From a virus (taxonomy: Duplodnaviria; Heunggongvirae; Uroviricota; Caudoviricetes): 64,000 bases of DNA. The notes below the pieces were generated by a model. That model did no database searches. It was not told the DNA's origin and saw only the letters and a program-made list of their open reading frames with translations. Below, one piece after another: positions 11,049 to 30,525 of this stretch. Position 1 is the stretch's first letter; each line of letters opens with the position of its first letter. The stretch spans positions 1 through 64,000 of the IMG/VR virus record IMGVR_UViG_3300027734_000050, one strand, 5' to 3'. The position numbers and the translations under genes are program-made.

Positions 11049-11259
11049 ATTTTTGAGAGTGTCAGCAAGAGAAAGTCACGCTGAAAAGCTTCTTCGAAGA
11101 GCTTGACAGTGTAACGCAACGGGGGGCGCGAATCCCCAGCAGCAATATAAGTGGACGTTGTGACAAGTATCCCAAGTGGCGTACCGAGACCTTGCCGGCC
11201 TTGTATAATAAGGTGAATGGTTCCGATAATATGGGCGGAACTACTCTCAAATTCAATCT

Positions 11260-11346: not shown

Positions 11347-11352
11347 TATTTC

Positions 11353-11427
11353 GGGGGATTAGTGATAATGGTAGCACATGTGCTTTGCAAGCATGAAGCA
11401 GGAGTTCGATTCTCCTATCCTCCACCA
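11353..11427 (+). tRNA. tRNA-Ala (TGC)
   Basis: Acceptor GGGGGAT/ATCCTCC has a G3:U70 pair. Anticodon loop TTTGCAA. T-arm AGGAGTTCGATTCTCCT. ACCA end. Confidence 0.75.
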
Positions 11428-12162: not shown

Positions 12163-12213
12163 AAAATATTTATTGCATGGTACTTTTTACTAAGTATTTT
12201 TAAGAGTTTATAT

Positions 12214-12292
12214 TCCGAGAAACCCGAGCTAGGTGCATGGGCGTGACTGTTAATCACTGGTTAGGTGGGTTCGAACCCCACACTCGGAGCCA
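12214..12292 (+). tRNA. tRNA-like, anticodon GTT (Asn), atypical D-arm
   Basis: Acceptor TCCGAGA/ACTCGGA with GCCA end. Anticodon stem GTGA/TCAC with loop CTGTTAA. T-arm GTGGGTTCGAACCCCAC. Confidence 0.5.
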
Positions 12293-12299
12293 AATTTTA

Positions 12300-12373
12300 G
12301 CCCTACTAGTACAATGGCAGTACACTGGTTTTGTAATCCTGTGATGGCAGTTCGATTCTGTCGTGGGGCACCA
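12300..12373 (+). tRNA. tRNA-Thr (TGT), weak anticodon stem
   Basis: Acceptor GCCCTAC/GTGGGGC. D-arm GTACAATGGCAGTAC. Anticodon loop TTTGTAA. T-arm GGCAGTTCGATTCTGTC. ACCA end. Confidence 0.6.
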
Positions 12374-12378
12374 CATAT

Positions 12379-13035
12379 ATGAAAAAAGCCGTGATCCTAG
12401 GCTGTAGCCATTCAGTTGGAGCAGAGATGCATCAAGAACCAGGATTGGTTTTTGACAGCTTCAATCAAGCCAACGACTATGAACAGACTCATTCTTATCC
12501 TGCTCAGATTGCACAGGTATTAGGATATGATCCAATCAATCTCAGCATATCAGGCGGCAGCAATGACGCCATGTTCAGACGGTTCACAGAACAAACTTTA
12601 ACACCCAACGACATAGTGATTGCTTGTTGGACAGGTGTGAATAGAAGTGAAATCTATGATAGCCAATGGATTGCAATGGCTCCGGGCGCAGTGCCAGATC
12701 AAGTCAATGCAGACTACTTTAAACAGTGGTTGTTGTATTCTGCCAACACTGAAGTAGGTATGTTGAATAAAACAAAAAACATCCTTGCACTCAATGCTCT
12801 GGCTCATGCACAAGGCATCCAAGTGATCAACATAGACAGTTTTTGGCCAGTGCCAGATGTTGCCTGGCCCAACTCAGTAGAGTGGGCTGTGAACATAGAT
12901 TTTATGGCATGGTGCCAACAACACAACTTTCCCCACACAGAGAAAGTTCATTTTTTCAAACCAGCACATGACTCGTTTGCCCAGCATGTGCTACAGAATA
13001 TTGCGGGTAGGGTGGCCACCACACCGGTCTCATAA
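12379..13035 (+). CDS. SGNH/GDSL-like hydrolase
   Basis: The N-terminal VILGCSHSVG is a GDS(L) block with a Ser nucleophile. ISGGSND is a block II-like motif. Confidence 0.45.
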   Translation: MKKAVILGCSHSVGAEMHQEPGLVFDSFNQANDYEQTHSYPAQIAQVLGYDPINLSISGGSNDAMFRRFTEQTLTPNDIVIACWTGVNRSEIYDSQWIAMAPGAVPDQVNADYFKQWLLYSANTEVGMLNKTKNILALNALAHAQGIQVINIDSFWPVPDVAWPNSVEWAVNIDFMAWCQQHNFPHTEKVHFFKPAHDSFAQHVLQNIAGRVATTPVS

Positions 13036-13075
13036 GCCAGGTGCATCGGCAGTTCGAATCTGTCACCCGCATCCA
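13002..13075 (+). tRNA. tRNA-like, anticodon CAT (Met/Ile2), small D-arm; overlaps the 3' end of the preceding CDS
   Basis: Acceptor TGCGGGT/ACCCGCA. Anticodon loop CTCATAA. T-arm GGCAGTTCGAATCTGTC. TCCA end. Confidence 0.4.
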
Positions 13076-13195
13076 AGTCAAGTCCATGCGTCACTCAAAC
13101 TGAATGAGTGTTTACCCGTCAGGGAGTCTCTGGACAGTTTTTCAAGTCCATACAGCCTCGATCTGATGGGGCCTCGTCACTGGACTGATTTCTTT

Positions 13196-13272
13196 ACCGC
13201 CTTGGCTCAACTGGATAGAGCACTGGATTACGAATCCGGGGGTTGGGAGTTCGAATCTCTCAGGTGGTACCA
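13196..13272 (+). tRNA. tRNA-Arg (ACG)
   Basis: Acceptor ACCGCCT/AGGTGGT. D-arm GCTCAACTGGATAGAGC. Anticodon stem CTGGA/TCCGG with loop TTACGAA. T-arm GGGAGTTCGAATCTCTC. ACCA end. Confidence 0.8.
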
Positions 13273-13277
13273 TTCAT

Positions 13278-13351
13278 GGCCCTTTAGTTAAAAGGTATAA
13301 CAGACGCTTGATAAGCGTCAGTCGGAGGATCGTTACCTCCCGGGGCTACCA
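13278..13351 (+). tRNA. tRNA-Ile (GAT) with non-canonical T-loop ATCGTTA
   Basis: Acceptor GGCCCTT/CGGGGCT. D-stem GTTA/TAAC. Anticodon stem GACGC/GCGTC with loop TTGATAA. T-stem GGAGG/CCTCC. ACCA end. Confidence 0.55.
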
Positions 13352-13356
13352 AACAG

Positions 13357-13385
13357 TTGACAACATTGTCAAAATGTTGTATAAT
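13357..13385 (+). promoter_or_regulatory. perfect-consensus sigma70 promoter TTGACA-17-TATAAT
   Basis: ttgacaacattgtcaaaatgttgtataat. Confidence 0.55.
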
Positions 13386-13490
13386 AGATTTTTTACACAG
13401 GAGCACAGCATGAAACATGCTAAACCATAGTGTCAATCCAGATCCCATGTAGGTCCGGGTTGGCACGTGAAAGACAATTTTACATACCAA

Positions 13491-13565
13491 CCCTCTAAGA
13501 TGTTAAGGCAGCATGCCGGACTCTTAATCCGTGACGTCCGAGTTCAAATCTCGGTGGAGGGACCA
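13491..13565 (+). tRNA. tRNA-Lys (CTT)
   Basis: Acceptor CCCTCTA/TGGAGGG. Anticodon loop CTCTTAA. T-arm CCGAGTTCAAATCTCGG. ACCA end. Confidence 0.65.
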
Positions 13566-13569
13566 ATAT

Positions 13570-13645
13570 GGGGCTATAGTTAAGCGGTTATAACATCACC
13601 CTTTTAAGGTGTAAGACCTCGGTTCGAATCCGAGTGGCCCTACCA
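13570..13645 (+). tRNA. tRNA-Lys (TTT)
   Basis: Acceptor GGGGCTA/TGGCCCT. D-stem GTTA/TAAC. Anticodon loop CTTTTAA. T-arm CTCGGTTCGAATCCGAG. ACCA end. Confidence 0.7.
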
Positions 13646-13796
13646 TTTAGTGAAACACTTTGCCCAAGCGAGAAACACATCTGTGGAGTCGCTCTCTGCA
13701 CGAGGATGTGAAAAGTCGGAATTATCCTTGCCCCCGCTCTTGGGGATGCGAATTAGGAAAAGGCAAAGGGAAGAGACAGAGTGTTTCACTAAATGG
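13643..13796. repeat. 17-bp inverted repeat (ccatttagtgaaacact / agtgtttcactaaatgg) anchored on the CCA of tRNA-Lys, with a ~120-nt GC-rich loop
   Basis: Arms at 13643-13659 and 13780-13796. A third copy of agtgaaaca lies at 13913. Confidence 0.6.
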
Positions 13797-14016
13797 TAAA
13801 ATTGAAGTTGACCTAGATCTATCCTGTGATGGATATGAGCAAGCGTGAAATATACGACATGTTGCCGGTGAGTCTGCGAGACTTGTTCTGGTCATGCCGA
13901 GTGCCTCAATATAGTGAAACAACAATCTCATCATGTGGAAGATGTAATACTTGCGTGACCTTGAAAGAACAAGGCATTCGCAAATAGAAAGCAAGGCATA
14001 ATTCGTACTATATAGT

Positions 14017-15549
14017 ATGATGTATGACGCTATTATTTTTACAGATTGTTGGGATATGATCGGCAATATCCCGGCGATTGGTGCATACAAATGTGCCCAT
14101 TCTCTAAGAAAAAATGGATACACTTGCTTGGTAGTAAATCATGTTGGAGAGTTTGAGTTTGAGGAACTGGTTGATCTATTGGACCAGGCCATTGGAAATA
14201 ATACTCGTCTGATTGGGTTTAGCACTACTTTCATATCCAACAAACTTGAATTAGAATCCAGCCTCTTCCCAGATGGGTTCTCCAGCCGTAATGAAATTTT
14301 GTTACCTCAAGGTGTAGAATTTGAGAGAAAAATAATAAAGTACATCCGAGATAAAAACAATCTTGTTAAAACTGTAGTGGGTGGCACAAAAGCCACGGTG
14401 AATTATTCAAATCGAGACATAGATTATGTATGTATCGGATACAGCGAAGTTAGTATTGTAAATCTCATGGATCACTTGATTAAAGAGATTGATCTTCAGA
14501 ACAGTCATCGAAACATTTTTGGTCGTGTTATCTTAGATGATAGATATGCACCATCATACGAATTCTCCAAGGAAGATATGATATGGATTGACACTGATGT
14601 GGTGAACCATAAATGTTTGCCTATCGAGATCGGTCGTGGATGTATTTTTCAATGCAAATTTTGTTCCTATCCATTGATCGGGAAGAAGAATCTAGACTAT
14701 GTAAAATCCTACGATTGTTTACAACATGAATTACAAAGAAACTATGAGCAGTTTGGTGTAAAAAATTATCTCATCATGGACGACACGTTTAATGACAATG
14801 TTGAAAAACTAAACCGCATTGAGTCTGTAGTGTCAAAATTAGATTTCCAACCGGAATTTTGGGCATACATCAGACTAGATCTACTTTGCACCAGACCCGA
14901 AACTTTGGATATGTTGTATCGCATTGGTGTTAGATCCATGACGTTTGGTATAGAAACGATGAATCCCAGTGCTGCCAAAAGCATCGGCAAAGGGTTTGAT
15001 CGAAATAAACTCGTTGCCAAACTAGATGAAATTGCGGAAAAATATCCCGACATGTACACAGGAAGTGGCTTTATAGTGGGACTTCCTGGCGAGACACCAG
15101 ATGATTTAAGAAAAACTTCTGATCGATTGATTTCTAGAGAAATTAAGTTACATAATTGGCAATGGGCACCATTGTTTATTGAACGTACAGGAACAGTGAC
15201 TTATACCAGTGAATTCGGACGTGACTTTGAAAAATATGGTTATGTGGATCAGACTCCATTGGATTCGTCTCGGATTGTCAACTGGAAATCTAATGTCATG
15301 ACTCGTGATGAATCTACAGAATTAGCAAATGAACTTAACTCCGTAGCCCAAGATCATGCAGGATTATATCCAGGTAGCATGACAGAAATTAGCACATATG
15401 GAAAATTTCAATGGAAAGATATCATGAAAAACTATCGAAAATTTTCTAAGTTGAATGTCCATAACAACCTACTCGTAGAACATCTTAGACCGAAGTTTAT
15501 GCAAGAATACAAGAAAAAGTTGTTTGATCTGGTTGCAGAGAAATCTTAA
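14017..15549 (+). CDS. B12-binding-domain radical SAM protein (class B rSAM-like)
   Basis: The N-terminal part is a Rossmann-like B12-binding region. GRGCIFQCKFCS is a CxxxCxxC motif at about residue 208. 510 aa. Confidence 0.6.
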   Translation: MMYDAIIFTDCWDMIGNIPAIGAYKCAHSLRKNGYTCLVVNHVGEFEFEELVDLLDQAIGNNTRLIGFSTTFISNKLELESSLFPDGFSSRNEILLPQGVEFERKIIKYIRDKNNLVKTVVGGTKATVNYSNRDIDYVCIGYSEVSIVNLMDHLIKEIDLQNSHRNIFGRVILDDRYAPSYEFSKEDMIWIDTDVVNHKCLPIEIGRGCIFQCKFCSYPLIGKKNLDYVKSYDCLQHELQRNYEQFGVKNYLIMDDTFNDNVEKLNRIESVVSKLDFQPEFWAYIRLDLLCTRPETLDMLYRIGVRSMTFGIETMNPSAAKSIGKGFDRNKLVAKLDEIAEKYPDMYTGSGFIVGLPGETPDDLRKTSDRLISREIKLHNWQWAPLFIERTGTVTYTSEFGRDFEKYGYVDQTPLDSSRIVNWKSNVMTRDESTELANELNSVAQDHAGLYPGSMTEISTYGKFQWKDIMKNYRKFSKLNVHNNLLVEHLRPKFMQEYKKKLFDLVAEKS

Positions 15550-15569
15550 AAGTGTTATAATAGTTCTAT

Positions 15570-15645
15570 GGTGTCATTAGTGTAGTGGCCTGCACCCTGC
15601 TCTGTGAAAGCGGTAGTACCGGATCGATACCGGTATGGCACCCCA
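15570..15645 (+). tRNA. tRNA-His (GTG) with encoded G-1
   Basis: Extra 5' G precedes the acceptor GTGTCAT/ATGGCAC. Discriminator is C. Anticodon stem CTGCT/AGCGG with loop CTGTGAA. T-arm ACCGGATCGATACCGGT. CCA end. Confidence 0.8.
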
Positions 15646-15652
15646 AATTTTC

Positions 15653-15727
15653 AGTTGTGTGACGTAGATGGATGCGTACCGCCCTCATAAGGCGAGGAGG
15701 TTGGATCGATACCAACCACAACTACCA
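15653..15727 (+). tRNA. tRNA-Met/Ile2 (CAT)
   Basis: Perfect acceptor AGTTGTG/CACAACT. Anticodon loop CTCATAA. T-arm GTTGGATCGATACCAAC. ACCA end. Confidence 0.8.
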
Positions 15728-15730
15728 CAT

Positions 15731-15813
15731 GCCCTGGTGACTTATGCAAATTGGCACAGCTACTGGTCTTAGAAGCCAGGTTTTTGCGGGTTCGAGTCCC
15801 GCCTAGGGCACCA
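15731..15813 (+). tRNA. tRNA, 83 nt, anticodon TAG (Leu) with oversized D region; atypical
   Basis: Acceptor GCCCTGG/CTAGGGC. Anticodon stem CTGGT/GCCAG with loop CTTAGAA. T-arm GCGGGTTCGAGTCCCGC. ACCA end. Confidence 0.5.
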
Positions 15814-15870
15814 AGATGACTCGCCTTGATTGATGGCGTATAATAGGAAAAGTAGTCAATCACAAATCTC

Positions 15871-15945
15871 GGGGGATTGGTATAGTTGGTAACATACCGC
15901 CATGGCATGGCGGAGTCAGCGGCTCGAATCCGCTATCCTCCACCA
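15871..15945 (+). tRNA. tRNA-Ala (GGC)
   Basis: Acceptor GGGGGAT/ATCCTCC, identical to the other Ala tRNA including G3:U70. Anticodon stem CCGCC/GGCGG with loop ATGGCAT. T-arm AGCGGCTCGAATCCGCT. ACCA end. Confidence 0.75.
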
Positions 15946-15952
15946 ACAACAT

Positions 15953-16042
15953 AGAGGATGCAGTAGGATGGTTCCTACACCTGTTTGGAAAACAGGCGAC
16001 TGGCGTGAGCTGGTCGGGGTTCAATTCCTCCTTCCTCTGCCA
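15953..16042 (+). tRNA. tRNA-Ser (GGA), type II
   Basis: Acceptor AGAGGAT/TTCCTCT. Discriminator G. Anticodon stem CCTGT/ACAGG with loop TTGGAAA. Long variable arm. T-loop GGGGTTCAATTCC. CCA end. Confidence 0.7.
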
Positions 16043-16064
16043 CAACAATAGAAAGGAACAAGTC

Positions 16065-16493
16065 ATGAATGAATTTGATGTATTAGTGGGCAAGCGTATA
16101 AATGGCTTGTTTATAGCCAACGACAAGTGGACACTGGTATTCCGTGATGTGTCCGGGCGCCGTTATCGTTTTGACACCGAAAATGATTGCTGCAACTCTG
16201 TGTGGTTTAACCATGTGACAGGTGCAAACATCCTGGGTGAAGGCAATACCTTCGATCTGCTACGCGGTGCAGAAGTGTTATCAGTAGAAGCCAAGGGCTG
16301 GGATGAAAACCGCAGCGACGAAGATGGATACGAAGTGGTTCAAGATGCGTTCTGGACCATACGCACCAACCGTGGCTACATAGACCTTGAAGTGCGTAAC
16401 AGCCACAATGGTTACTATGGTGGCAGCGTGAGCTATAGCGGCACCAATGTGGGTGAGTTGGCCGACATGGTACAGATCACCGAAGACTTCTAA
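16065..16493 (+). CDS. hypothetical protein (~142 aa)
   Basis: Start at MNEFDV after the RBS AAAGGAACAAG. The upstream part of the 16005 ORF overlaps tRNA-Ser and was trimmed. Confidence 0.5.
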   Translation: MNEFDVLVGKRINGLFIANDKWTLVFRDVSGRRYRFDTENDCCNSVWFNHVTGANILGEGNTFDLLRGAEVLSVEAKGWDENRSDEDGYEVVQDAFWTIRTNRGYIDLEVRNSHNGYYGGSVSYSGTNVGELADMVQITEDF

Positions 16494-16570
16494 CTCTGTA
16501 TGGCGCAGCCCGGTAGCGCACTTGCATGGGGTGCAAGGGGTCGCAAGTTCGAATCTTGCTACAGAGACCA
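16494..16570 (+). tRNA. tRNA-Pro (GGG)
   Basis: Perfect acceptor CTCTGTA/TACAGAG. Anticodon stem CTTGC/GCAAG with loop ATGGGGT. T-arm GCAAGTTCGAATCTTGC. ACCA end. Confidence 0.75.
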
Positions 16571-16571
16571 C

Positions 16572-16645
16572 AGACTCTTAGTTCAATGGAAGAACGATAC
16601 CCTGACATGGTATAGAAACAAGTTCAATTCTTGTAGAGTCTACCA
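16572..16645 (+). tRNA. tRNA-Val (GAC)
   Basis: Perfect acceptor AGACTCT/AGAGTCT. Anticodon stem ATACC/GGTAT with loop CTGACAT. T-arm ACAAGTTCAATTCTTGT. ACCA end. Confidence 0.8.
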
Positions 16646-16730
16646 CTTGACAGGTATTGCGAATCCTGCTATAATTGTGGCATAGATAGAAAACATCTAT
16701 CCGTGCTCTTTAAAAATTTCGTAAGTTTTT

Positions 16731-16804
16731 GCCTCGTTAGTTTAATGGTAGAACTCCGTCTTTACACGGCGGTTGCGGCAGTTCAATTCTGTCACGAGGT
16801 ACCA
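16731..16804 (+). tRNA. tRNA-Val (TAC)
   Basis: Acceptor GCCTCGT/ACGAGGT. D-arm GTTTAATGGTAGAAC. Anticodon stem CCGTC/GGCGG with loop TTTACAC. T-arm GGCAGTTCAATTCTGTC. ACCA end. Confidence 0.8.
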
Positions 16805-16807
16805 AAT

Positions 16808-16885
16808 GTAGCGGTGGCGGAGAGGTCCAACGCAAGAGTCTGCAAAACTCTAACACCGTGAGTTCAAATCTCACCCGCTACTCCA
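16808..16885 (+). tRNA. tRNA-Cys (GCA)
   Basis: Perfect acceptor GTAGCGG/CCGCTAC. Discriminator U. Anticodon stem AGAGT/ACTCT with loop CTGCAAA. T-arm GTGAGTTCAAATCTCAC. CCA end. Confidence 0.7.
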
Positions 16886-17011
16886 TATATGAACACATTC
16901 ACGGTGGGGATACCAGCAACTGGACGCAGGGGCTATCCGAAAGAGCAGGCATGCTTACCGAAAGCTGGAGACGAGTGTGTTCTTATATGGACAGTTGGTC
17001 CAACAAAATAA

Positions 17012-17085
17012 CTCGGTATAGTGAAATGGTATCACCCGTGCTTTGGGAGCATGAAGCGGAAGTTCGATTCTTCCTACCGAGACCA
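17012..17085 (+). tRNA. tRNA-Pro (TGG)
   Basis: Perfect acceptor CTCGGTA/TACCGAG. D-stem GTGA/TCAC. Anticodon stem CGTGC/GCATG with loop TTTGGGA. T-arm GGAAGTTCGATTCTTCC. ACCA end. Confidence 0.75.
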
Positions 17086-17091
17086 AACAAC

Positions 17092-17178
17092 GCGACTGTG
17101 GCGAAATAGGTAGACGCCTCAGACTTAAAATCTGATGTCCGTAAGGGCGTACCGGTTCGATTCCGGTCAGTCGTACCA
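17092..17178 (+). tRNA. tRNA-Leu (TAA), type II
   Basis: Acceptor GCGACTG/CAGTCGT. D-arm GCGAAATAGGTAGACGC. Anticodon stem TCAGA/TCTGA with loop CTTAAAA. Long variable arm TGTCCGTAAGGGCGT. T-arm ACCGGTTCGATTCCGGT. ACCA end. Confidence 0.8.
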
Positions 17179-17180
17179 GA

Positions 17181-17255
17181 CTGGCGTTAGTATAATGGAT
17201 AATACAGCGGTCTTCTACACCGTGAATATGGGTTCGATTCCTGTACGCCGGACCA
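17181..17255 (+). tRNA. tRNA-Arg (TCT)
   Basis: Acceptor CTGGCGT/ACGCCGG. Anticodon stem GCGGT/ACCGT with loop CTTCTAC. T-loop GGGTTCGATTCC. ACCA end. Confidence 0.7.
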
Positions 17256-17263
17256 GAATATTG

Positions 17264-17354
17264 CCAGCGAGACTGGGTAGTCAGAGAGGTCTTATAAGCC
17301 TTTTAGCGCCAGATTAGCGTTCTTGAGAGAGTTCGAGTCTCTCCGCTGGTACCA
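17264..17354 (+). tRNA. tRNA, 91 nt type II-like, anticodon loop CTTATAA (TAT, Ile-AUA?) - identity uncertain
   Basis: Acceptor GCCAGCG/CGCTGGT. T-arm GAGAGTTCGAGTCTCTC. ACCA end. Candidate anticodon stem GAGGT/GCCTT. The long extra arm is poorly paired. Confidence 0.5.
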
Positions 17355-17365
17355 AACTGTAATGT

Positions 17366-17388
17366 GTAAGTGAGTAAGTAAGTAAAAT
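17366..17388. repeat. simple (GTAA)n-like repeat between tRNAs
   Basis: gtaagtgagtaagtaagtaaaat. Confidence 0.5.
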
Positions 17389-17462
17389 GTATCCATAGTG
17401 TAATGGCAGCATCGCGGTCTCCAAAACCGTCAGTCTAGGTTCGAGTCCTAGTGGGTACGCCA
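17389..17462 (+). tRNA. tRNA-Trp (CCA)
   Basis: Acceptor GTATCCA/TGGGTAC. Anticodon stem GCGGT/ACCGT with loop CTCCAAA. T-arm CTAGGTTCGAGTCCTAG. GCCA end. Confidence 0.75.
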
Positions 17463-17478
17463 ACAAAGAAAGTAAATC

Positions 17479-17961
17479 ATGAAAAAAATGGACCTAGAAA
17501 AAGTCAAAGCATTTATCCATGCACAAAGTCCTGAAACTTCTGTTTACCTGGGCTGCGATAGTGAAAGAGTTAAAGTAGATGGCGTATGGCATGCAGACTA
17601 TGCTCTAGCAGTGGTGGTGCATATCGATAGTTGCCATGGTTGCAAGATCTTTGGTGAAGTACACCGTGAACGCGACTGGGATCAACGCAGTGATAAACCT
17701 AGCATGCGACTGATGAACGAAGTTTACAAGGTGAGTGAACTGTTCCAAAAGATGGCAGATGTGTTAGAAGATCGACTGGTTGAAGTCCACTTGGACATTA
17801 ACCCTGATCAGATGCACAAGAGTTCTGTTGTGGTTAACCAAGCAATTGGATATATAAAGGGAACTTGTAATGTGATTCCAATGGTCAAGCCAAGAGCGTT
17901 TGCTGCTAGTTATGCAGCAGACAGACTAGATTGGGTGCTGAGCAATCGCAAAGCAGCCTAA
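17479..17961 (+). CDS. hypothetical protein (160 aa) embedded in the tRNA array
   Basis: ORF with RBS AAAGAAAGTAAATC upstream. No recognisable motif. Confidence 0.5.
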   Translation: MKKMDLEKVKAFIHAQSPETSVYLGCDSERVKVDGVWHADYALAVVVHIDSCHGCKIFGEVHRERDWDQRSDKPSMRLMNEVYKVSELFQKMADVLEDRLVEVHLDINPDQMHKSSVVVNQAIGYIKGTCNVIPMVKPRAFAASYAADRLDWVLSNRKAA

Positions 17962-18033
17962 CCCGGGCGGCGTGAAAGAGAGCCGTCAACAGCCCGTTTA
18001 GGGACGATTGGGTGAGAAGCCCATCCCAATACC

Positions 18034-18107
18034 GCGGGGTTCGTAAAATGGTATTACCTCATCCTTCCAAGTTGATGTCAGGAGTTCGATTCTCCTACCC
18101 CGCTCCA
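18034..18107 (+). tRNA. tRNA-Gly (TCC)
   Basis: Perfect acceptor GCGGGGT/ACCCCGC. Discriminator U. D-stem GTAA/TTAC. Anticodon loop CTTCCAA. T-arm AGGAGTTCGATTCTCCT. CCA end. Confidence 0.75.
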
Positions 18108-18367
18108 AGTCTATTTAGAATGTTAGAGGCACGAGTCCTGAGTCGTTGTGTGAATTCACTTTCGGTAAGAACGCCCTTGGCAAGATTGCACTTGCGGCAT
18201 GTGACTTGCAGATTGTTGTAAGTGGTTTCTCCACCCTGTGATTCAGGTATCACATGATCCATGTGGATTTCGGCACTGCTGAGATCTTCGTCACAATATA
18301 CACACCGAGGCCCATCTCGTTCAATGATTCGTTGGCGTAGGTTGCGTGGTATGTGTTGCTTCAACAT
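18095..18367 (-). CDS. HNH endonuclease (90 aa) inside the tRNA array
   Basis: CVYCDEDL...HMDHVIPESQGGETTYNNLQVTCRKCNLAKG is a canonical HNH with CxxC pairs. Its 3' end overlaps tRNA-Gly by about 13 nt. Confidence 0.7.
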   Translation of the reverse strand: MLKQHIPRNLRQRIIERDGPRCVYCDEDLSSAEIHMDHVIPESQGGETTYNNLQVTCRKCNLAKGVLTESEFTQRLRTRASNILNRLGAG

Positions 18368-18565
18368 CAGGAATATTTAAGATCAATCGGATCGGGCGAG
18401 TTAAAAACTCATTGACGATGGGCCCAACTGCAAGGGACCAAAAATTGAAACCAGTGCCTCTGACCCAACGAGGGAGATGATTAGTCATCATCATTACATG
18501 TGACTGGTGGGCTCCGGGTGTTGAACCTGACTGCCCTTAAACTCAAATGCAGTGCCCGATTTTGA

Positions 18566-18594
18566 TTGACTTGTATCGAGTTTAAATATATAAT
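18566..18594 (+). promoter_or_regulatory. consensus sigma70 promoter TTGACT-17-TATAAT upstream of tRNA-Ser(GCT)
   Basis: ttgacttgtatcgagtttaaatatataat. An almost identical module is found at 20427-20455. Confidence 0.6.
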
Positions 18595-18603
18595 AACAAC
18601 ATA

Positions 18604-18694
18604 GTGAGTTGGATGAGTGGCTTAAATCAACACCCTGCTAAGGTGTCGTCTCCAGTAATGGGGGCCGTGGGTTCAAATCCCACACTCACTGCCA
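18604..18694 (+). tRNA. tRNA-Ser (GCT), type II
   Basis: Perfect acceptor AGTGAGT/ACTCACT. Discriminator G. Anticodon stem ACACC/GGTGT with loop CTGCTAA. Long variable arm. T-arm GTGGGTTCAAATCCCAC. CCA end. Confidence 0.8.
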
Positions 18695-18710
18695 AACAAA
18701 TAGCACAAAA

Positions 18711-19403
18711 ATGAAATTAGTTTTTTGTTTTCCTGGCCAATCATTCAGCAAGAACTGGATGGCAGCGTGGAATGACACCATACGCTGGCTTTATCGAAAC
18801 AACATAGAATATGTGACAATAAATGCATATTCGCCAGTGATCTACAACTGTAGAAACATGCTGTTGGGGGCTACCGGTAATCCACCTAGAACTTTCCGAC
18901 CATTCAACGGCGTGCTAGATTACGATTGGATCATCTGGATTGACAACGATAACATCTGGACACCCGAGGATCTTGAACGACTGATCAGTGTTCCTGAACA
19001 CCAGATCGTCACTGGATTCTATATACAGCATGACAACCGAACTTATGCACAGGCTGTGTTCCACAGTGATAGTAAAACCGATTTGCTGTGGTTACCACGA
19101 GAGATGGTGCATGTAAATGGATATAGATTCCAGTTGGCTGCCTCAGGAATGGGATTCATGGCTGTGCAAAAAGGTGTGTTTGAATCCATGGAATGTCCGT
19201 TCTTCCGACCCGTTGAATACGAAATCAAAGATGATACAACTGCATTCTTATCAGAGGACACAGGCTTCTGCCACAGGGCAATAAACGCAGGATACCAAGT
19301 ATGGGCAGATCCCGGCATACAGGTCAAACATGAGAAGGCCTGGTTGTTAAGCGGTGACAGCGATCACGGCATCAAGCCCGAGAATGTTGTGTTAAATAGA
19401 TAA
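18711..19403 (+). CDS. putative GT-A-fold glycosyltransferase (DxD-type)
   Basis: WIDNDNIW has a DxD-like motif after a beta-strand. SEDTGFC is also present. 230 aa. The functional call is weak. Confidence 0.3.
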   Translation: MKLVFCFPGQSFSKNWMAAWNDTIRWLYRNNIEYVTINAYSPVIYNCRNMLLGATGNPPRTFRPFNGVLDYDWIIWIDNDNIWTPEDLERLISVPEHQIVTGFYIQHDNRTYAQAVFHSDSKTDLLWLPREMVHVNGYRFQLAASGMGFMAVQKGVFESMECPFFRPVEYEIKDDTTAFLSEDTGFCHRAINAGYQVWADPGIQVKHEKAWLLSGDSDHGIKPENVVLNR

Positions 19404-20446
19404 TGCAACCGCCCAAGTTCCTGTTCTTAGATATCAACCTACAATGCAATCTCAAATGCAAGACCTGCATGTATTGGACACGAGAAGAAGTTGTATTACC
19501 CACACACATATCTATCGAACAACGCAGTGATATCATTGCAGAGTTTGCTACACTGAATCCCCAAGGGGCTGTGGTGATCTGTGGTGGCGAAGCACTGATG
19601 AATCCTGAAAGGTATTGGCCTATAACAAGACAATGCCGTTCATTAGGACTAAGATGTTTGAGCGTGATGAATGGCACTATGGTCACAGATCTGTCGTTCG
19701 CTAAGAAATTGATAACGGAAGGCCCAAGCGAAATAACAATATCCTTGAACAGTTATATCCCAGAGGTGCATGATTCCACCCGTGGAGTCGCAGGATCATT
19801 TGACATGGCAGTGAATGCCATCCGGTTGTTGTTGCAGGCAAGAAAAGAATTAAACAGCAACACACCCATCTACGCCATGTCAGTGATGTGCGAACAGAAC
19901 TATCGAGACCTAGATCAGTTCTACGACTTTGTGTTGAATGATCTAAAGGCAGACAAGTTAAAGTTAAACTGGTTACAGCCCACATTTGGCACATTGCTGG
20001 ATCGTAATGGTGATCCACGGCCAGACAAGTTCTACGACAACAATGTGATCCGTGATCATGAAGCATTGTTTGAGATCTTGAATCACTGCACAGAGAAATA
20101 CCAGTTGAATCTGGATCCCGAATACATAGAAACAGTTCGCAAGTATCATCGCAGTGTGTTCAAGAATGCGGATGCAGTCACAGGCTGGGATGGTGACGGC
20201 ACAGAAGATGCCATATGCAACAGTTTCGATCGCAACATCATGGTCAATATGGACGGTGTTGCCCGACTGTGTTTTTCAGATCAGTTCCCTAGTTTCAAGA
20301 TTAGCAGGCCCGGTGATCTCGCACATTTGTGGCACAGTGCCGAACCAGTGAGAAATCTCATGAGACCGTGCAGACAGTATTGCGGAATCAGTCACAGCGT
20401 AAGGCGAGTCAATGCTACTAAGAAGATTGACATCTATCAAGTTTGA
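19403..20446 (+). CDS. radical SAM protein (SPASM/twitch-like, AnSME/PqqE-like)
   Basis: CNLKCKTC is a CxxxCxxC motif at residues 15-22. VICGGEALMNP is present. There are C-terminal Cys residues. Confidence 0.6.
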   Translation: MQPPKFLFLDINLQCNLKCKTCMYWTREEVVLPTHISIEQRSDIIAEFATLNPQGAVVICGGEALMNPERYWPITRQCRSLGLRCLSVMNGTMVTDLSFAKKLITEGPSEITISLNSYIPEVHDSTRGVAGSFDMAVNAIRLLLQARKELNSNTPIYAMSVMCEQNYRDLDQFYDFVLNDLKADKLKLNWLQPTFGTLLDRNGDPRPDKFYDNNVIRDHEALFEILNHCTEKYQLNLDPEYIETVRKYHRSVFKNADAVTGWDGDGTEDAICNSFDRNIMVNMDGVARLCFSDQFPSFKISRPGDLAHLWHSAEPVRNLMRPCRQYCGISHSVRRVNATKKIDIYQV

Positions 20447-20455
20447 ATATATAAT
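20427..20455 (+). promoter_or_regulatory. perfect-consensus sigma70 promoter TTGACA-17-TATAAT upstream of tRNA-Gly(GCC)
   Basis: ttgacatctatcaagtttgaatatataat followed by aacaacata, as at 18566. Confidence 0.6.
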
Positions 20456-20465
20456 AACAACATAA

Positions 20466-20540
20466 GCGGGCATGGTGCTAGTGGTAACACATAACTTTGC
20501 CAAAGTTAAGTTACGAGTTCGATTCTCGTTGCCCGCTCCA
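20466..20540 (+). tRNA. tRNA-Gly (GCC)
   Basis: Perfect acceptor GCGGGCA/TGCCCGC. Discriminator U. Anticodon stem TAACT/AGTTA with loop TTGCCAA. T-arm ACGAGTTCGATTCTCGT. CCA end. Confidence 0.8.
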
Positions 20541-20689
20541 TCAACAGCGGATAAGTTACATTATCCAGTATGAGTCACTAAGGTAGGTACCTAATCCTTA
20601 GGGCAAGTAACAGTATCAAAATGCGATGTAACAGGTGAGTAGTGATCTACTTCATAGGGGATACCTCAAAAATGTTCTCCACCAATTCT

Positions 20690-20777
20690 GGAAGTGTGGT
20701 AGAGAGGTCTATTACAGCAGTCTTGAAAACTGCCGGGTCGAAAGGCTCCGTGAGTTCGAATCTCACCGCTTCCGCCA
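20690..20777 (+). tRNA. tRNA-Ser (TGA), type II
   Basis: Acceptor GGAAGTG/CGCTTCC, close to E. coli tRNA-Ser. Discriminator G. Anticodon stem GCAGT/ACTGC with loop CTTGAAA. Long variable arm. T-arm GTGAGTTCGAATCTCAC. CCA end. Confidence 0.8.
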
Positions 20778-20832
20778 ACAACACGGCTCTGCCCTGTGCT
20801 CTTTGTCAAATCACAGCAGGGTTCTTTTACAT

Positions 20833-20907
20833 CGGCCTTTGGTGAAATGGATATCATACTGGGCTTCGAACCCAGTGGTGGGAGTTCGATCCTCTCAGGG
20901 CCGGCCA
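20833..20907 (+). tRNA. tRNA-Arg (TCG)
   Basis: Acceptor CGGCCTT/AGGGCCG. Anticodon stem CTGGG/CCCAG with loop CTTCGAA. T-arm GGGAGTTCGATCCTCTC. GCCA end. Confidence 0.7.
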
Positions 20908-20912
20908 AACTG

Positions 20913-20987
20913 CTCCGTGTAGTTCAAAGGATAGAACGAGGTCCTCCTAAGACTTAAATATCAGTTCAATTCTGGTCGCGGAGACCA
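20913..20987 (+). tRNA. tRNA-Arg (CCT)
   Basis: Acceptor CTCCGTG/CGCGGAG. D-stem GTTC/GAAC. Anticodon stem AGGTC/GACTT with loop CTCCTAA. T-arm ATCAGTTCAATTCTGGT. ACCA end. Confidence 0.7.
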
Positions 20988-20991
20988 ACAT

Positions 20992-21065
20992 GCTCCTATA
21001 GTTAAATGGCAGAACACATCCTTGGTAAGGATGAGATACAAGTTCGATTCTTGTTAGGAGCACCA
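20992..21065 (+). tRNA. tRNA-Thr (GGT)
   Basis: Perfect acceptor GCTCCTA/TAGGAGC. Anticodon stem CATCC/GGATG with loop TTGGTAA. T-arm ACAAGTTCGATTCTTGT. ACCA end. Confidence 0.8.
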
Positions 21066-21299
21066 ACAATAAGGAGACCATATGTTCGTAGGATTGATGG
21101 GGGTTGACAATGATGGTAAAACCATGTACACTCCCAGTGGTAACAAGATATTTTTCACACTGCCCTGGGGACTAGCGTGGCGTGTGCAAGAGATACAACA
21201 TTGGATCGCTCGGAAGACTTGGCGATAAATAAGAGTTAGCACTATAGAAGATTAGATAATATCAAATCTCAGGGCTGGTACACCACATGCAACCTCTCC

Positions 21300-21401
21300 G
21301 AGAAGTGGCATGGTTAGACCGTATAGTGTTGAAAGTTATTGCTGTATGAAGCAAAGAGAAAAGTGTTCTGGACGCGGGTTCGACTCCCGCCAGGTCCACC
21401 A
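21300..21401 (+). ncRNA. ssrA: tmRNA acceptor piece (T-arm, 3' acceptor strand and CCA) of a circularly permuted two-piece ssrA gene; 5' boundary uncertain
   Basis: ggacgcgggttcgactcccgccaggtccacca is almost identical to the 3' end of E. coli tmRNA (GGACGCGGGTTCAACTCCCGCCAGCTCCACCA). It lies upstream of the matching 5' acceptor strand, not downstream. Confidence 0.7.
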
Positions 21402-21486
21402 CAAGCATATTGCGGTGTGTATTCGAAAGACCGATCACCTTGGCGTTTCGATGTTTTCGCAAGTGATTTTACAATATGCTTTTGAT
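21402..21486 (+). other. tmRNA intervening segment closed by the inverted repeat aagcatattg / caatatgctt
   Basis: Arms at 21403-21412 and about 21468-21477 bring the CCA end and the GGGCCTG 5' end together. This arrangement is typical of permuted ssrA precursors. Confidence 0.55.
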
Positions 21487-21694
21487 GGGCCTGACATTGG
21501 TTTCGACAGGGCAAAGAGTAACAGAGTGGACAGCTCGGGAAAGCAGAACCCGTAGGGTTGGGGAGACTCGGCCGTAGAAGCAAAAAACGTAAATGCAAAC
21601 GACGAACAGTTCGCTTTAGCAGCCTAAACACTGCTTAGGGTAGGAAATACCTCGTAACAGAAATCACCAAACCCGCTTCGGCGGGTTTTTTTTT
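21487..21694 (+). ncRNA. ssrA: tmRNA coding piece: 5' acceptor strand GGGCCTG, tag ORF gca aac gac gaa cag ttc gct tta gca gcc taa (ANDEQFALAA), terminator
   Basis: gggcctgacattggtttcgacaggg parallels E. coli GGGGCTGATTCTGGATTCGACGGG. Acceptor pairing 1-7/66-72 retains G3:U70 and has a compensatory C4:G69. The tag reading frame is at 21595-21627. A rho-independent terminator lies at 21669-21694. Confidence 0.7.
21669..21694 (+). terminator. rho-independent terminator (aaacccgc-ttcg-gcgggttt followed by a T9 run)
   Basis: Perfect 8-bp GC-rich stem, tetraloop and T-run. It is followed immediately by promoter TTGACA-17-TATACT at 21697-21725. Confidence 0.8.
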
Positions 21695-21748
21695 GATTGA
21701 CACACCCGGGCTTTTCGTGTATACTGACATTTTTAACCAAGGAGTCTT

Positions 21749-22606
21749 ATGTTTCTCATTATCGTAGGTTTTGTTATTGGTCTGATCATCGCGGGTGCTA
21801 TCGCATTCATTTCTGATTTCAAACAAATTGGTGCAGCAATCGCAGCAGGTATGGCTACTGTTTTGTTGTTCGTTGGTGTAGCCAGTTTCACCGTGATATC
21901 AGCAGGTCATACTGGTGTGCAGGTCACATTCGGTGAGGTCAATCCGCAACCTTTAACTGAAGGTGTGCATATGGTCAATCCTATCAGCAGCATTGCTGAT
22001 GTGGATGTTCGACTACAGAAAGCTGAACTCAAAGGTGCCAACGCAGGAACCAAAGACCTGCAGGTTGTGCATACTGACATCGTAGTAAACTATCGTCTGG
22101 ACCCACTCAAGGTTCCACACATCTTCAAAGAGTATGGACTCAATGTTGACGAAAAGGTTCTTGGCCCTGGTATCAACGAAGCGTTCAAATCAGTAACTGG
22201 CCACTATACCAGTGAAGAATTGGTTACCAAGCGTGATTTGGTCAGTCAAGAGATCCTGCAACACTTGGTCACTAAGATGGCTCCGTTCAATATTACTGTG
22301 AGCAACATCAGCCTGGTGAATTTTGGATTCAGTCAAGCATATCAACAAGCCATTGAAGACAAGGTGATCTCTGCACAGAAAACTGCCAAGGCACAACAAG
22401 ACCTTGAGCGTATCAAAGTTGAGGCTGCAAGTCGTATTGCTCAAGCCGAAGGTGAAGCCAAGGCCATTGCTATCCAAGCCAGTGCTATCCAAAGCAACGG
22501 TGGTGCAAACTATGTGCAACTGCAATGGATCGAAAAATGGGATGGTAAGTTGCCTGCTACTGTGGTAGGTGCTGATAGCAAGACATTGATGAATATCAGC
22601 AAGTAA
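21749..22606 (+). CDS. SPFH/band-7 (prohibitin/HflK/C-like) membrane protein
   Basis: N-terminal TM helix, then an SPFH core, then an Ala/Gln/Glu-rich coiled coil (AQQDLERIKVEAASRIAQAEGEAKAIA). RBS AAGGAG present. Confidence 0.7.
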   Translation: MFLIIVGFVIGLIIAGAIAFISDFKQIGAAIAAGMATVLLFVGVASFTVISAGHTGVQVTFGEVNPQPLTEGVHMVNPISSIADVDVRLQKAELKGANAGTKDLQVVHTDIVVNYRLDPLKVPHIFKEYGLNVDEKVLGPGINEAFKSVTGHYTSEELVTKRDLVSQEILQHLVTKMAPFNITVSNISLVNFGFSQAYQQAIEDKVISAQKTAKAQQDLERIKVEAASRIAQAEGEAKAIAIQASAIQSNGGANYVQLQWIEKWDGKLPATVVGADSKTLMNISK

Positions 22607-22621
22607 CATTCTTGCTGGTCA

Positions 22622-22645
22622 GGGCCCTTCGGGGCCCTTTTTCTT
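22622..22645 (+). terminator. rho-independent terminator (gggccc-ttcg-gggccc followed by T-run)
   Basis: Perfect hairpin followed by tttttcttt. Confidence 0.75.
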
Positions 22646-22657
22646 TAAATATATTAT

Positions 22658-23650
22658 ATGATAAACTGGCCCATTGAAATAACAGAAAACAAATACAGTC
22701 GTTGGTATGAGCAACTGATCAACAAATCTCGCGACAGAGAACCTATCATTGGTTATACAGAAAAGCATCATGTGATTCCCCGCAGTCTCGGTGGAGACAA
22801 CACTAAACAAAATCTAGTCAATCTCACTGCCAGGGAACACTATGTGGCGCATGCACTTCTATGGAAGATGAAACTTCCAGGGGTTGCTGGAAGTAAGATG
22901 GCATTTGCTTTTAACACTTTTATAAGTAGGATGCATGTGAATGATGAGCATTCTTACACCATAAGCAGTAGAATATACGAATCGTTTAGAATTCACTATG
23001 CCAATATTTTAAGATCAACAATGACGGGGTCGGGCAATCACTTCTATGGAAAAAAACACTCAGAAGAGACTAGGCGAATCATTGGAGAAAAAAGCAAACT
23101 CAAAGAGTTTAAACGCGGACCGGATAATCCTAACTGGGGCAAGAAGCAGAATGTTAGCCTAGAGGGCAAGGCCAGAAAACTTGCCGCTCATAAAAAACAC
23201 TGGGCCGATCCCAGTTGGAAAGAGCAGGTATTAGCCAAAAGAGAAAAAGTTAGTAAACAACCCGAAGTGGTTGCCAAAAGAAAAGCAGCCGCAGATGCAA
23301 AAAGGGGTGTAAAACGAGACCCTGCTCACACAGAAAAAATGAGAGCGGCGGCATCGGCACGAAAAGGTAAAAGTTGGAAAGAAATATATACTCCTGAGCA
23401 AATTATACGACTGCAAGAAGGAAGGAAGAATAGAGTTCTAACACCTGAAGCAAAAGCGAAGATGTGGTTTAAAGGAAAAGGCAAAGGAATCCCTAAAGTA
23501 AAACATCCATGTCCGCATTGTGGAAAACTATGTGCAGGGAATATGCTAGCCAAGTGGCACGGTGATAATTGTAAATCACTCAGTAGTAACACTGACTCAC
23601 AATCCAGATTGTCTTTAGGAATCTTGTGTTACAATCGTGATACATACTAG
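22658..23650 (+). CDS. HNH homing endonuclease with NUMOD3-like DNA-binding repeats (I-HmuI-like)
   Basis: HHVIPRSLGGDNTKQNLVNLTAREH is an HNH core. It is followed by repeated GKKHSEETRR / GKSWKE NUMOD-like segments and a C-terminal CPHCGKLC zinc finger. Confidence 0.7.
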   Translation: MINWPIEITENKYSRWYEQLINKSRDREPIIGYTEKHHVIPRSLGGDNTKQNLVNLTAREHYVAHALLWKMKLPGVAGSKMAFAFNTFISRMHVNDEHSYTISSRIYESFRIHYANILRSTMTGSGNHFYGKKHSEETRRIIGEKSKLKEFKRGPDNPNWGKKQNVSLEGKARKLAAHKKHWADPSWKEQVLAKREKVSKQPEVVAKRKAAADAKRGVKRDPAHTEKMRAAASARKGKSWKEIYTPEQIIRLQEGRKNRVLTPEAKAKMWFKGKGKGIPKVKHPCPHCGKLCAGNMLAKWHGDNCKSLSSNTDSQSRLSLGILCYNRDTY

Positions 23651-29439: not shown

Positions 29440-30525
29440 ATGAGCGATTCACGCACCGTCACTTCGCGCCAAGCGCACAAGAGTCTGCTTAAAGCATTCA
29501 AAGCCCAACGCCCGCTGTTCCTGTGGGGCCCTCCTGGAATTGGCAAGAGTGAATTGGTAGAAGGCATTACCAAAGAACTCAACGGTTACATGATCGACCT
29601 GCGTTTGGGCCAGATGGAACCCACTGACATCCGTGGTATTCCGTTCTACAACAAAGAGATTGGCAAGATGGATTGGGCACCTCCTGTGGAATTGCCTGAC
29701 GACGAACTGGCCAGCCAGTATCCTATCGTTGTGCTGTTCTTGGACGAACTGAACAGTGCCGCAGCCAGTGTTCAAGCCGCTGCTTATCAGTTGATCTTGA
29801 ACCGTCGCATTGGCAAGTATGTGCTGCCTAAGAATGTTGTGATGGTTGCCGCAGGTAACCGTGAAAGCGACAAGGGTGTGACTTATCGTATGCCTACTCC
29901 GTTGGCAAATCGTTTCATCCACCAAGAGATGAAGGTGGACTTTGCCAGTTGGTTGGAATGGGCTGTGCTCAACAACATCCACAAAGATGTGGTAGGTTAC
30001 TTGAGCTTTGCCAAGCAAGACCTCTACGACTTTGACGCTAAAACCGCAAGCCGTGCGTTCGCTACTCCGCGTTCTTGGACATTCGTTAGCCAACTGCTGG
30101 ACGACGAAGACAGCGACACTGACACCACTACCAACTTGGTAGCGGGCACTGTGGGTGAAGGCCTGGCAGTGAAGTTCATGGCACACCGCAAGGTTGCTGG
30201 ACGCATGCCCAAGCCCGAAGACATCTTGAGTGGCAAGGTCAAGGACTTGAATGTGAAAGAAGTCAGTGCTATGTACAGCCTGGTTATTTCCATGTGCTAC
30301 GAACTCAAGGCGGCTGTTGAGAACAAAACAGACGAGAAGAAGTTCCACGAAATGGCTGATAACTTCCTCAGTTACATGATGCGGAACTTTGAGACTGAGT
30401 TGACTGTGATGGGTTCGCGTATTGCATTGACCACATACGACTTGCCATTCAAGCCTACCAAGCTCAAGCACTTCGATGAGTTTCACAGCAAGTTTGGAAA
30501 GTATGTGCTGCAAGCACAAAGCTAA
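29440..30525 (+). CDS. MoxR-family AAA+ ATPase (AAA_5 / CbbQ-NirQ-GvpN-like)
   Basis: Walker A LWGPPGIGKSEL. Walker B VVLFLDELN. The sensor region AAGNRES resembles MoxR proteins. Promoter TTGACA-17-TACAAT at 29381-29409. Confidence 0.7.
   Translation: MSDSRTVTSRQAHKSLLKAFKAQRPLFLWGPPGIGKSELVEGITKELNGYMIDLRLGQMEPTDIRGIPFYNKEIGKMDWAPPVELPDDELASQYPIVVLFLDELNSAAASVQAAAYQLILNRRIGKYVLPKNVVMVAAGNRESDKGVTYRMPTPLANRFIHQEMKVDFASWLEWAVLNNIHKDVVGYLSFAKQDLYDFDAKTASRAFATPRSWTFVSQLLDDEDSDTDTTTNLVAGTVGEGLAVKFMAHRKVAGRMPKPEDILSGKVKDLNVKEVSAMYSLVISMCYELKAAVENKTDEKKFHEMADNFLSYMMRNFETELTVMGSRIALTTYDLPFKPTKLKHFDEFHSKFGKYVLQAQS

Follow-up and report, generated by a model that had tools for sequence, protein, structure and literature searches.

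A circularly permuted tmRNA gene of the betaproteobacterial two-piece type beside a tRNA array in a large phage genome

A 64,000-nucleotide stretch of the virus record IMGVR_UViG_3300027734_000050 (hereafter the window, to which all coordinates refer; features lie on the + strand unless marked otherwise) raises the question of whether a phage can carry, intact and usable, a transfer-messenger RNA (tmRNA) gene whose two halves are circularly permuted. A gene of this kind, with the tag ANDEQFALAA, was proposed at 21300-21694 in an initial annotation made from the letters alone. That the locus is a genuine, intact permuted tmRNA gene is essentially certain, and ARAGORN, Rfam and covariation across relatives agree on this point. 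ARAGORN reports a permuted gene ('tmRNA*') at 21309-21718 with the tag ANDEQFALAA*, and two Rfam models exceed their curated thresholds, namely RF01850 (beta_tmRNA) at 21285-21691, with 120.2 bits against a threshold of 84 (E=4.9e-36) over the full model 1-331, and RF04321 (tmRNA_permuted) at 21340-21627, with 120.2 bits against a threshold of 47 (E=6.6e-23); these are the programs by which the initial annotation had proposed to check itself. The tRNA-like 3' half (T-arm, acceptor 3' strand and CCA) comes first and is followed by an intervening sequence (IVS) and then by the tRNA-like 5' half with the tag frame. The acceptor-side module GGACGCGGGTTCGACTCCCGCCAGGTCCACCA ends at 21401, and the 5' module GGGCCTGACATTGGTTTCGACAGGG starts at 21487 (GGGCCTG), 85 nt past the CCA end; all positions first given for these elements are exact in the sequence.

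Nothing was found in favour of reading the locus as an ordinary one-piece tmRNA gene mistaken for a permuted one, apart from the likeness of its 5' module and tag to those of standard genes. A sensitive search of 21484-23500, which extends ~2 kb past the tag, recovers no tRNA-like 3' half, and its best match is RF01850 lacking its 5' end (model positions 139-331) and stopping at the terminator, directly after which the promoter of the next gene lies at 21697. Because the tRNA-like 3' half is not downstream of the tag, and is instead found upstream in perfect pairing with the 5' half, the one-piece reading fails and retains a vanishingly small probability. No 3' end downstream of the tag, the outcome that the initial annotation had named as contrary to its proposal, is thus present in this interval.

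The beta model RF01850 is retained over the other tmRNA models of clan CL00001, including the alpha model RF01849. Judged by RNA architecture (RF01850), the gene is of the betaproteobacterial two-piece type, although its carrier is a phage and not a betaproteobacterial chromosome. The features that define a permuted tmRNA and the RF01850 architecture were all found, so far as they are testable, and the differences are the phage carrier, a reduced 3' region and an unproven pseudoknot 1 (PK1).

The structured part of the acceptor piece spans 21340-21401, as delimited by the Rfam alignment and the comparative alignment. It comprises the 5' strand of distal P2 (21341-21345), the 5' side of the mid-P2 pairs (21351-21352), the 5' strand of P2a (21364-21370), a T-arm of 5 bp (GCGGG/CCCGC, 21374-21378/21386-21390) with the 7-nt loop UUCGACU, the acceptor 3' strand (21391-21397), the discriminator A73 (21398) and an encoded CCA (21399-21401). 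The coding piece, placed by the same two alignments at 21487-21694 (~208 nt), opens with the acceptor 5' strand (21487-21493) and continues with GGUUUCGAC (21499-21507), the 3' strand of P2a (21507-21513), the 3' side of mid-P2 (21526-21527) and the 3' strand of distal P2 (21530-21534). Two hairpins, stem A (21536-21539/21549-21552) and stem B (21556-21562/21567-21573), occupy the position of PK1. The tag frame, evident in the sequence and called by ARAGORN, runs from the GCA resume codon to TAA (21595-21627, stop at 21625-21627), encodes ANDEQFALAA* and is directly preceded by a conserved GUAAAU. It overlaps the stop-codon hairpin P5 (21618-21622/21631-21635), which is followed by hairpin P6 (21638-21642/21648-21652) and, 3' of it, the conserved single strand CGUAACAGAA.

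As first described, the acceptor helix pairs perfectly between the two pieces (GGGCCUG/CAGGUCC), with seven of seven pairs that include G3:U70 and C4:G69. The alanine identity elements (G3:U70, A73 and the encoded CCA) are intact, as are the T-arm, the resume codon and the ...ALAA end of the tag. In the window, no supported pseudoknot pairing is found for PK2; a covarying H-type PK2 (GGTTGG/CCAACC and variants) is clear in other subgroups only, and the subgroup of the window has a simple hairpin and an intrinsic terminator in place of the PK2-like pseudoknot of its relatives.

Support for these helices comes largely from covariation, which was analyzed in an alignment of 30 distinct sequences with the IVS excised and 47 proposed pairs. 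Standard pairs occupy 94.4% of cells, as compared with 83.0% after shuffling (not equalled in any of 500 shuffles) and 38-50% when the partners are slid by 1-3 columns. Changes on both sides occur at 23 pairs (0/500 shuffles), and the covariation score is 0.326 against 0.136 for shuffled alignments. P1 is 100% paired with 3 covarying pairs, P2a 99.5% with 5, distal P2 88.5% with 3, and the T-arm 100% with 4; stems A and B, paired in 98% and 96% of cases, both covary. The acceptor stem exists in six covarying versions, in all of which G3:U70 is kept (30/30 relatives). On this comparative basis, the helices that would join the two RNAs (P1, P2a and distal P2) are intact and are the best supported by covariation.

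Thermodynamic folding of the precursor gives a minimum free energy (MFE) of -112.7 kcal/mol (z = -2.2) and recovers P1 with the IVS stem, stem B, P5, P6 and the terminator; P1 and the IVS closing stem are present in both the MFE and the centroid folds. However, the MFE structure of the precursor and the cofold of the two pieces both mispair the T-arm with the PK1 region, and covariation is relied on for the structure for this reason. Forcing the comparative helices costs no more than ~7 kcal/mol relative to the MFE. A third helix between the pieces, 21335-39 (GUUAU) with 21654-58 (GUAAC), emerged from constrained folding and was rejected: it shows no covariation and is mismatched where the 5' side differs. 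The conserved AGTTAT is more likely to be part of a promoter or of the transcription-start region.

The 85-nt IVS (21402-21486), predicted to be excised, fills the gap between the CCA end and G1. It is closed by a perfect 10-bp inverted repeat, aagcatattg/caatatgctt (21403-21412/21472-21481), exactly as first noted, and a repeat search joins this closing stem to the acceptor stem in a single imperfect inverted repeat of 22 nt (21391-21412/21472-21493). The IVS ends in UGAU, which places a U at -1 before G1. Among the relatives, the IVS ranges from 56 to 255 nt; in 29 of 32 distinct IVSs the two ends form a stem (7-16 pairs of differing sequence), and all finish in ..TGAT or ..TAAT before G1. 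By this comparison, the closing stem is a conserved precursor feature of the beta-type group. The initial annotation had guessed as much from the analogy with alphaproteobacterial permuted precursors, although the group is of the beta and not the alpha type.

The IVS of several relatives (designations such as L005 denote individual loci of relatives or variants) is nearly filled by an open reading frame (ORF), as in the long IVSs L005:5645-5865, L030:781-1036 and L039:812-1035 (all +) and in the 138-nt IVS of L007, L011, L028 and L043. These ORFs encode 41-80 amino acids, are mutually unrelated and match no PHROG family. A Shine-Dalgarno-like motif, which reads AAGGAAG or, in the L007 group, AAAGGA, precedes each start codon by 4-6 nt and is located in the 5' arm of the closing stem. 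No small ORF is present in the 85-nt IVS of the window. The arrangement in the relatives suggests that small genes may be housed in the IVS, and if these ORFs are real genes, the precursor would be both an mRNA and a tmRNA.

The ends of the two pieces were placed with the help of promoters and a terminator. A proximal promoter is represented in the window by a candidate -10 box, TATAGT (21322-21327), which is aligned to the promoter columns of RF01850, and by a poor -35 (CCGAGA/CGAGAA). In at least 18 of 33 relatives, a sigma-70 match of 10-12/12 is found, with the -10 ending 8-9 nt before the distal P2 helix. Because of this promoter spacing in the relatives, the 5' end of the acceptor piece is put at the distal P2 helix, at ~21334-21340. 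The predicted mature sizes are therefore ~62-68 nt for the acceptor piece, shorter than the ~100 nt first suggested, and ~208 nt for the coding piece. The 3' end of the latter is taken, from the sequence, as an intrinsic terminator at 21669-21694 (hairpin 21669-88) with the 8-bp stem AAACCCGC/GCGGGUUU, the loop UUCG and U9, which also matches the terminal hairpin of RF01850.

A strong sigma-70-like promoter of near-consensus sequence (TTGACA-17-TACACT) lies upstream at 21104-21132. No terminator on the + strand is found between this promoter and 21669, so that read-through into the tmRNA gene is possible, and expression may rely partly on it. In L025 and in the Stenotrophomonas phage Bhz51, the tmRNA gene abuts a tRNA instead of having its own promoter. 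The next gene of the window has a near-consensus promoter of its own, TTGACA-17-TATACT (21697-21725), directly after the terminator. The tmRNA gene is therefore flanked by two near-consensus sigma-70 promoters, and promoters of the host type appear to be used by the phage in this region. The stretch from the 21104 promoter to the tmRNA gene holds a possible ORF of 34 codons.

Relatives of the gene were sought in IMG/VR with a loose pattern that covers the 5' module and the first part of the tag, which yielded 48 loci. ARAGORN classifies 43 of them as permuted, with tags of the ANDxxFALAA type (an identical tag in 7), and 11 lie on contigs of 127-364 kb. Together with the cultured phages XacN1 and Bhz51, ~45 permuted relatives on viral contigs and in cultured phages are available. 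All permuted relatives scanned with Rfam, including XacN1 and Bhz51, reach the RF04321 threshold, and all but L005 and L045 also exceed that of RF01850. The loci of the relatives have a GC content of 35-44%, and their tmRNA genes ~50%. Many relatives and the window have protein genes in common, with 45-80% amino acid identity (the ATPase, thymidylate synthase, a DUF2201 protein, a carbamoyltransferase and radical-SAM proteins), and for this reason the tmRNA gene is regarded as a trait of a large-phage clade and not as a chance capture.

Close variants are found in other samples. The segment 20249-24106 is identical to contig Ga0209297_1000064 (80.7 kb) of JGI metagenome 3300027733, and the tmRNA gene, or the part of it that is present, is 100% identical in five other contigs from several samples. 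The exact protein of the neighbouring ATPase occurs in 101 data blocks, the longest contig being 341,273 bp. Variant L100 is changed at unpaired positions only, and in variant L102 the tag reads ANDSQFALAA, an A-U pair of P5 is replaced by G-C through a compensatory change, and a G.U pair of stem B has become A-U. Many contigs with the downstream Band_7 gene (L099-L105) start inside the tmRNA gene, at 21371, 21498, 21549 and ~21635-21640. Assembly breaks seem to fall in this conserved gene, probably as related, co-occurring phages share it.

Bacterial carriers of the tag were sought with back-translated ANDEQFALAA* in one genome per bacterial species, which gave 41 loci. Standard one-piece genes account for 39 of these, and one locus (L084) has no ARAGORN call. 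The one-piece genes belong to Rhodocyclaceae (Uliginosibacterium, Dechloromonas and Viridibacterium), Limnobacter and Pasteurellaceae. The tag sequence read by the initial annotation stands, but since Rhodocyclaceae and Limnobacter have it in addition to Pasteurellaceae, it is not diagnostic of Gammaproteobacteria, to which it had been ascribed. The sole permuted locus of this set, L052, lies among tRNA genes on a 23-kb contig (NZ_JBBAKG010000090.1) of a 'Haliscomenobacter sp.' metagenome-assembled genome (MAG), and its gene is 79-90% identical to that of the window. Because it sits among tRNAs and resembles the window, this contig probably derives from a phage and was placed in a Bacteroidota MAG by a binning error. 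So far, judging from the sequences retrieved, the combination of a permuted gene with ANDEQFALAA appears to be phage-specific.

On the strength of the conserved sequence features, the locus is likely a functional permuted ssrA gene that supports trans-translation with host factors. Several observations weigh against this reading. At the position of PK1, no supported pseudoknot pairing is found, only the two tandem covarying hairpins; mid-P2 forms a purine-rich internal loop and departs there from the Rfam consensus; and the unconstrained fold lacks both the T-arm and P2, with a z of only -2.2. The proximal promoter of the window scores 8/12, and the gap between its -10 and the helix is 12 nt (a displacement of 3 nt), unlike that in most relatives. 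Additionally, tblastn finds no smpB in the 64-kb window (the best match, E = 0.15, lies over tRNA genes), and a biological benefit to the phage is conjecture.

The degenerate promoter, in addition to an extra U that the window has between the acceptor stem and GGUUUCGAC in comparison with nearly all relatives, could also be taken to indicate a passenger, that is, a recently captured or decaying host ssrA without a selected function in the phage. However, the gene is intact across a diverse viral clade that shares protein genes, compensatory changes have accumulated among the phage copies, and the gene is identical across independent samples. There is also no obvious recent donor, because the bacterial genomes with the exact tag carry one-piece genes, and the passenger explanation is therefore considered very unlikely.

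A related explanation is that the locus is an integration-site remnant, an ssrA fragment of a temperate phage that integrates in the host ssrA. ssrA is described as a common prophage attachment site, of which a 3' fragment is often carried by phages (PMC4383910, PMC9004378). The window holds more than such a 3' fragment, since both tRNA-like halves, the whole mRNA-like domain and the terminator are present, and in permuted order. Moreover, no integrase is seen among the ~50 ORFs scanned, and the gene lies by a tRNA array in a genome resembling those of jumbo phages, which makes a remnant extremely improbable.

The smpB search used an E. coli SmpB query, which was validated by its match to PF01668 (194 bits) and by 100% identity to real genes. 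With tblastn, no smpB was found in the viral loci or in the bacterial ssrA loci, and when IMG/VR was scanned with the E. coli protein, the only genes recovered were of the E. coli type and sat at the ends of prophage contigs, which is uninformative for this clade. Because no smpB is present in the 64-kb window, function would depend on SmpB encoded by the host or elsewhere. The suggestion that the phage maintains its own ribosome-rescue capacity is accordingly borne out in that the tmRNA is intact, but, within the window, not with respect to self-sufficiency.

If the gene functions as its features suggest, the precursor would be ~360 nt, or longer with read-through from the 21104 promoter, and would end at the 21669-21694 terminator. 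The acceptor stem would stack on the IVS closing stem to form a substrate resembling a pre-tRNA, which RNase P could cut 5' of G21487. Trimming from the 3' side would be halted at CCA21401, and the 85-nt IVS would be released, while the acceptor piece (~62-68 nt) and the coding piece (~208 nt) would remain base-paired. The host alanyl-tRNA synthetase would charge this two-piece RNA, and host SmpB would carry it to stalled ribosomes. Translation would restart at GCA21595 and append ANDEQFALAA, which would mark the peptide for host proteases, and the ribosome would be recycled. Together with a full tRNA set, the tmRNA could keep translation going in the infected cell, for instance after a shut-off of host RNA synthesis or the cleavage of mRNAs and tRNAs.

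The same RNA could instead act against the host, for example by sequestering host SmpB or by outcompeting the host tmRNA. This possibility draws on the tmRNA of mycobacteriophage DS6A, which consists only of a tRNA-like domain (TLD), resembles a known tmRNA inhibitor that perhaps titrates SmpB (PMC4131195), on the amino-acid recycling proposed for phage Melnitz (PMC9004378), and on the failure to find smpB in the window. It is set against the conservation and covariation of the resume codon, the motif upstream of it, the tag frame, its ...ALAA end and the stop-codon hairpin. Translation of the tag is argued for because these elements are conserved and covary, whereas a pure SmpB sponge would not need them, and an anti-host role is consequently regarded as unlikely.

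Two-piece tmRNAs from permuted genes are established in Alphaproteobacteria, a betaproteobacterial group and Cyanobacteria (PMC11915505), and phage tmRNAs have been listed since 2014 (PMC4131195). Huge phages carry tmRNA, some of them also SmpB (Al-Shayeb et al. 2020, PMC7162821), and in a survey with ARAGORN, 53 of the 133 unique phage tmRNAs were two-piece, most of them from aquatic phages (Buchholz et al. 2022, PMC9004378). With phage two-piece and huge-phage tmRNAs already published (PMC9004378, PMC7162821), the gene of the window is a further example and not a new category, and it is less remarkable than was first suggested.

The closest match in architecture is the betaproteobacterial two-piece tmRNA (RF01850), which has the same permutation, the same P2 and tRNA-like architecture and the same IVS position, and likewise has an ANDExFALAA-type tag, a reduced 3' pseudoknot region and a terminal hairpin; the gene of the window differs in lying on a low-GC (~45%) phage genome instead of a chromosome and in its off-consensus mid-P2. 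This lineage was reportedly described by Sharkady and Williams in 2004, and the alphaproteobacterial two-piece tmRNA of Caulobacter is said to have been described by Keiler et al. in 2000 (both as cited in PMC9004378). The alphaproteobacterial form (Caulobacter, RF01849) follows the same principle of a cleaved precursor and paired pieces, whereas the window best fits the beta model. The phage two-piece tmRNAs of Methylophilales phage Melnitz and the pelagimyophages (PMC9004378) are also phage-borne, permuted and detected by ARAGORN; the Melnitz gene is of the alphaproteobacterial type and has a glutamine riboswitch, whereas that of the window is of the beta type and has no riboswitch by Rfam. 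The huge phages (PMC7162821) are likewise large phages with tmRNA, many tRNAs and translation genes, and SmpB is reported in some of them, in contrast to the 64 kb of the window; the form of the gene is not discussed in that paper. The one-piece phage tmRNAs of the mycobacteriophage Bxz1 group and Bacillus phage G (PMC4131195) are phage-borne but in standard order, and the TLD-only RNA of DS6A (PMC4131195) is phage-borne but lacks the mRNA-like domain, which is complete in the window.

Among cultured phages, the Xanthomonas jumbo phage XacN1 and Menderavirus (Stenotrophomonas phages Bhz51, Mendera, Moby and others) have permuted genes beside tRNA genes, with RF01850 and RF04321 both above threshold. 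Only the tRNA-like 3' part of these genes can be aligned with the window at the DNA level (80-89% identity), and their tags, ANANTFDYALAA and VAANDDSYTVRIAA, differ from that of the window. The permuted tmRNA is poorly annotated in records of such phages, for example MN095772.1 (Moby), NC_048804.1 (Mendera), AP018399.1 (XacN1) and ON758385.1 (BUDD). In these Stenotrophomonas and Xanthomonas phages, the gene has no annotation, is labelled tRNA-Leu or tRNA-OTHER, or is overlaid with coding sequences for a 'hypothetical protein'.

The Xanthomonas and Stenotrophomonas hosts have a one-piece ssrA, while their phages carry the permuted gene. This difference is in line with a broader and more doubtful proposal, namely that the 'betaproteobacterial' two-piece tmRNA is largely a phage-maintained lineage, inherited vertically in large aquatic phages independently of the form of the host tmRNA, with IVSs able to host small genes. 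The proposal is supported in that bacteria with the identical tag have one-piece genes, but it is put forward only tentatively and is held to be rather improbable as a whole. If it were true, phages might be the vehicle or the origin of the permuted form in some Betaproteobacteria. The window provides a well-resolved example from an abundant phage, and by this comparison the beta-type two-piece tmRNA is common, often unannotated or mislabelled, in a clade of large low-GC phages beside complete tRNA sets, which lends support to the idea that large phages come with a translation-maintenance module of their own. The relatives also provide a comparative dataset of ~35 distinct sequences for the structure and the processing signals of two-piece tmRNAs (the IVS closing stem and the U at -1).

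Among the RNA genes of the translation module, the tmRNA gene comes last; it is preceded by 37 tRNA genes in ARAGORN (3924-21065), which cover all 20 amino acids and are interleaved with protein genes; the near-complete tRNA set first noted nearby is thus present, and Rfam lists 34 of the 37. The tRNA-Ile(UAU) is 92 nt long (17263-17354), the tRNA-Asn is 68 nt (10355-10422), and tRNA-Met(CAU) occurs three times. The tRNA array, the PHROG matches and a jumbo-phage ATPase give the carrier a phage-like context, and the carrier is a large phage with a low GC content (~45%) and related contigs of up to ~341 kb. In the cultured-phage collection, no near match to the window genome is found at high identity, and the best cultured protein relatives are PA5oct-like Pseudomonas jumbo phages (49% identity). 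Two ORFs over the tmRNA gene, 21310-21555 (+) and 21314-21631 (-), were rejected as mechanical, as their tblastn matches in relatives mirror the conservation of the RNA gene.

A NUMOD3/homing-endonuclease gene (22658-23650, +) is located two genes downstream of the tmRNA. Variant contig L101 carries different genes after the Band_7 gene, which indicates that the region downstream of the tmRNA is mosaic between samples. Further downstream, a MoxR-like AAA ATPase (phrog_1297) is found near a second protein (phrog_1314), at 29440-30525 and 32144-33454 (+). The second protein is named 'HNH endonuclease' in PHROGs, whereas identical metagenome genes are DUF2201/DUF2201_N in Pfam, and the PHROG name looks doubtful. 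A cluster at 42915-59058 (-), with a lower GC content of 36-45%, encodes a Nol-like carbamoyltransferase, at least six tandem radical-SAM paralogues and an AMP-binding enzyme. In three radical-SAM proteins of this cluster, the SPASM domain is N-terminal to the radical-SAM core, which is unusual, as it is normally C-terminal. More radical-SAM genes lie inside the tRNA region (8957-9733, 14017-15549 and 19403-20446), and the gene at 14017-15549 has a weak, sub-threshold match to a B12-binding domain.

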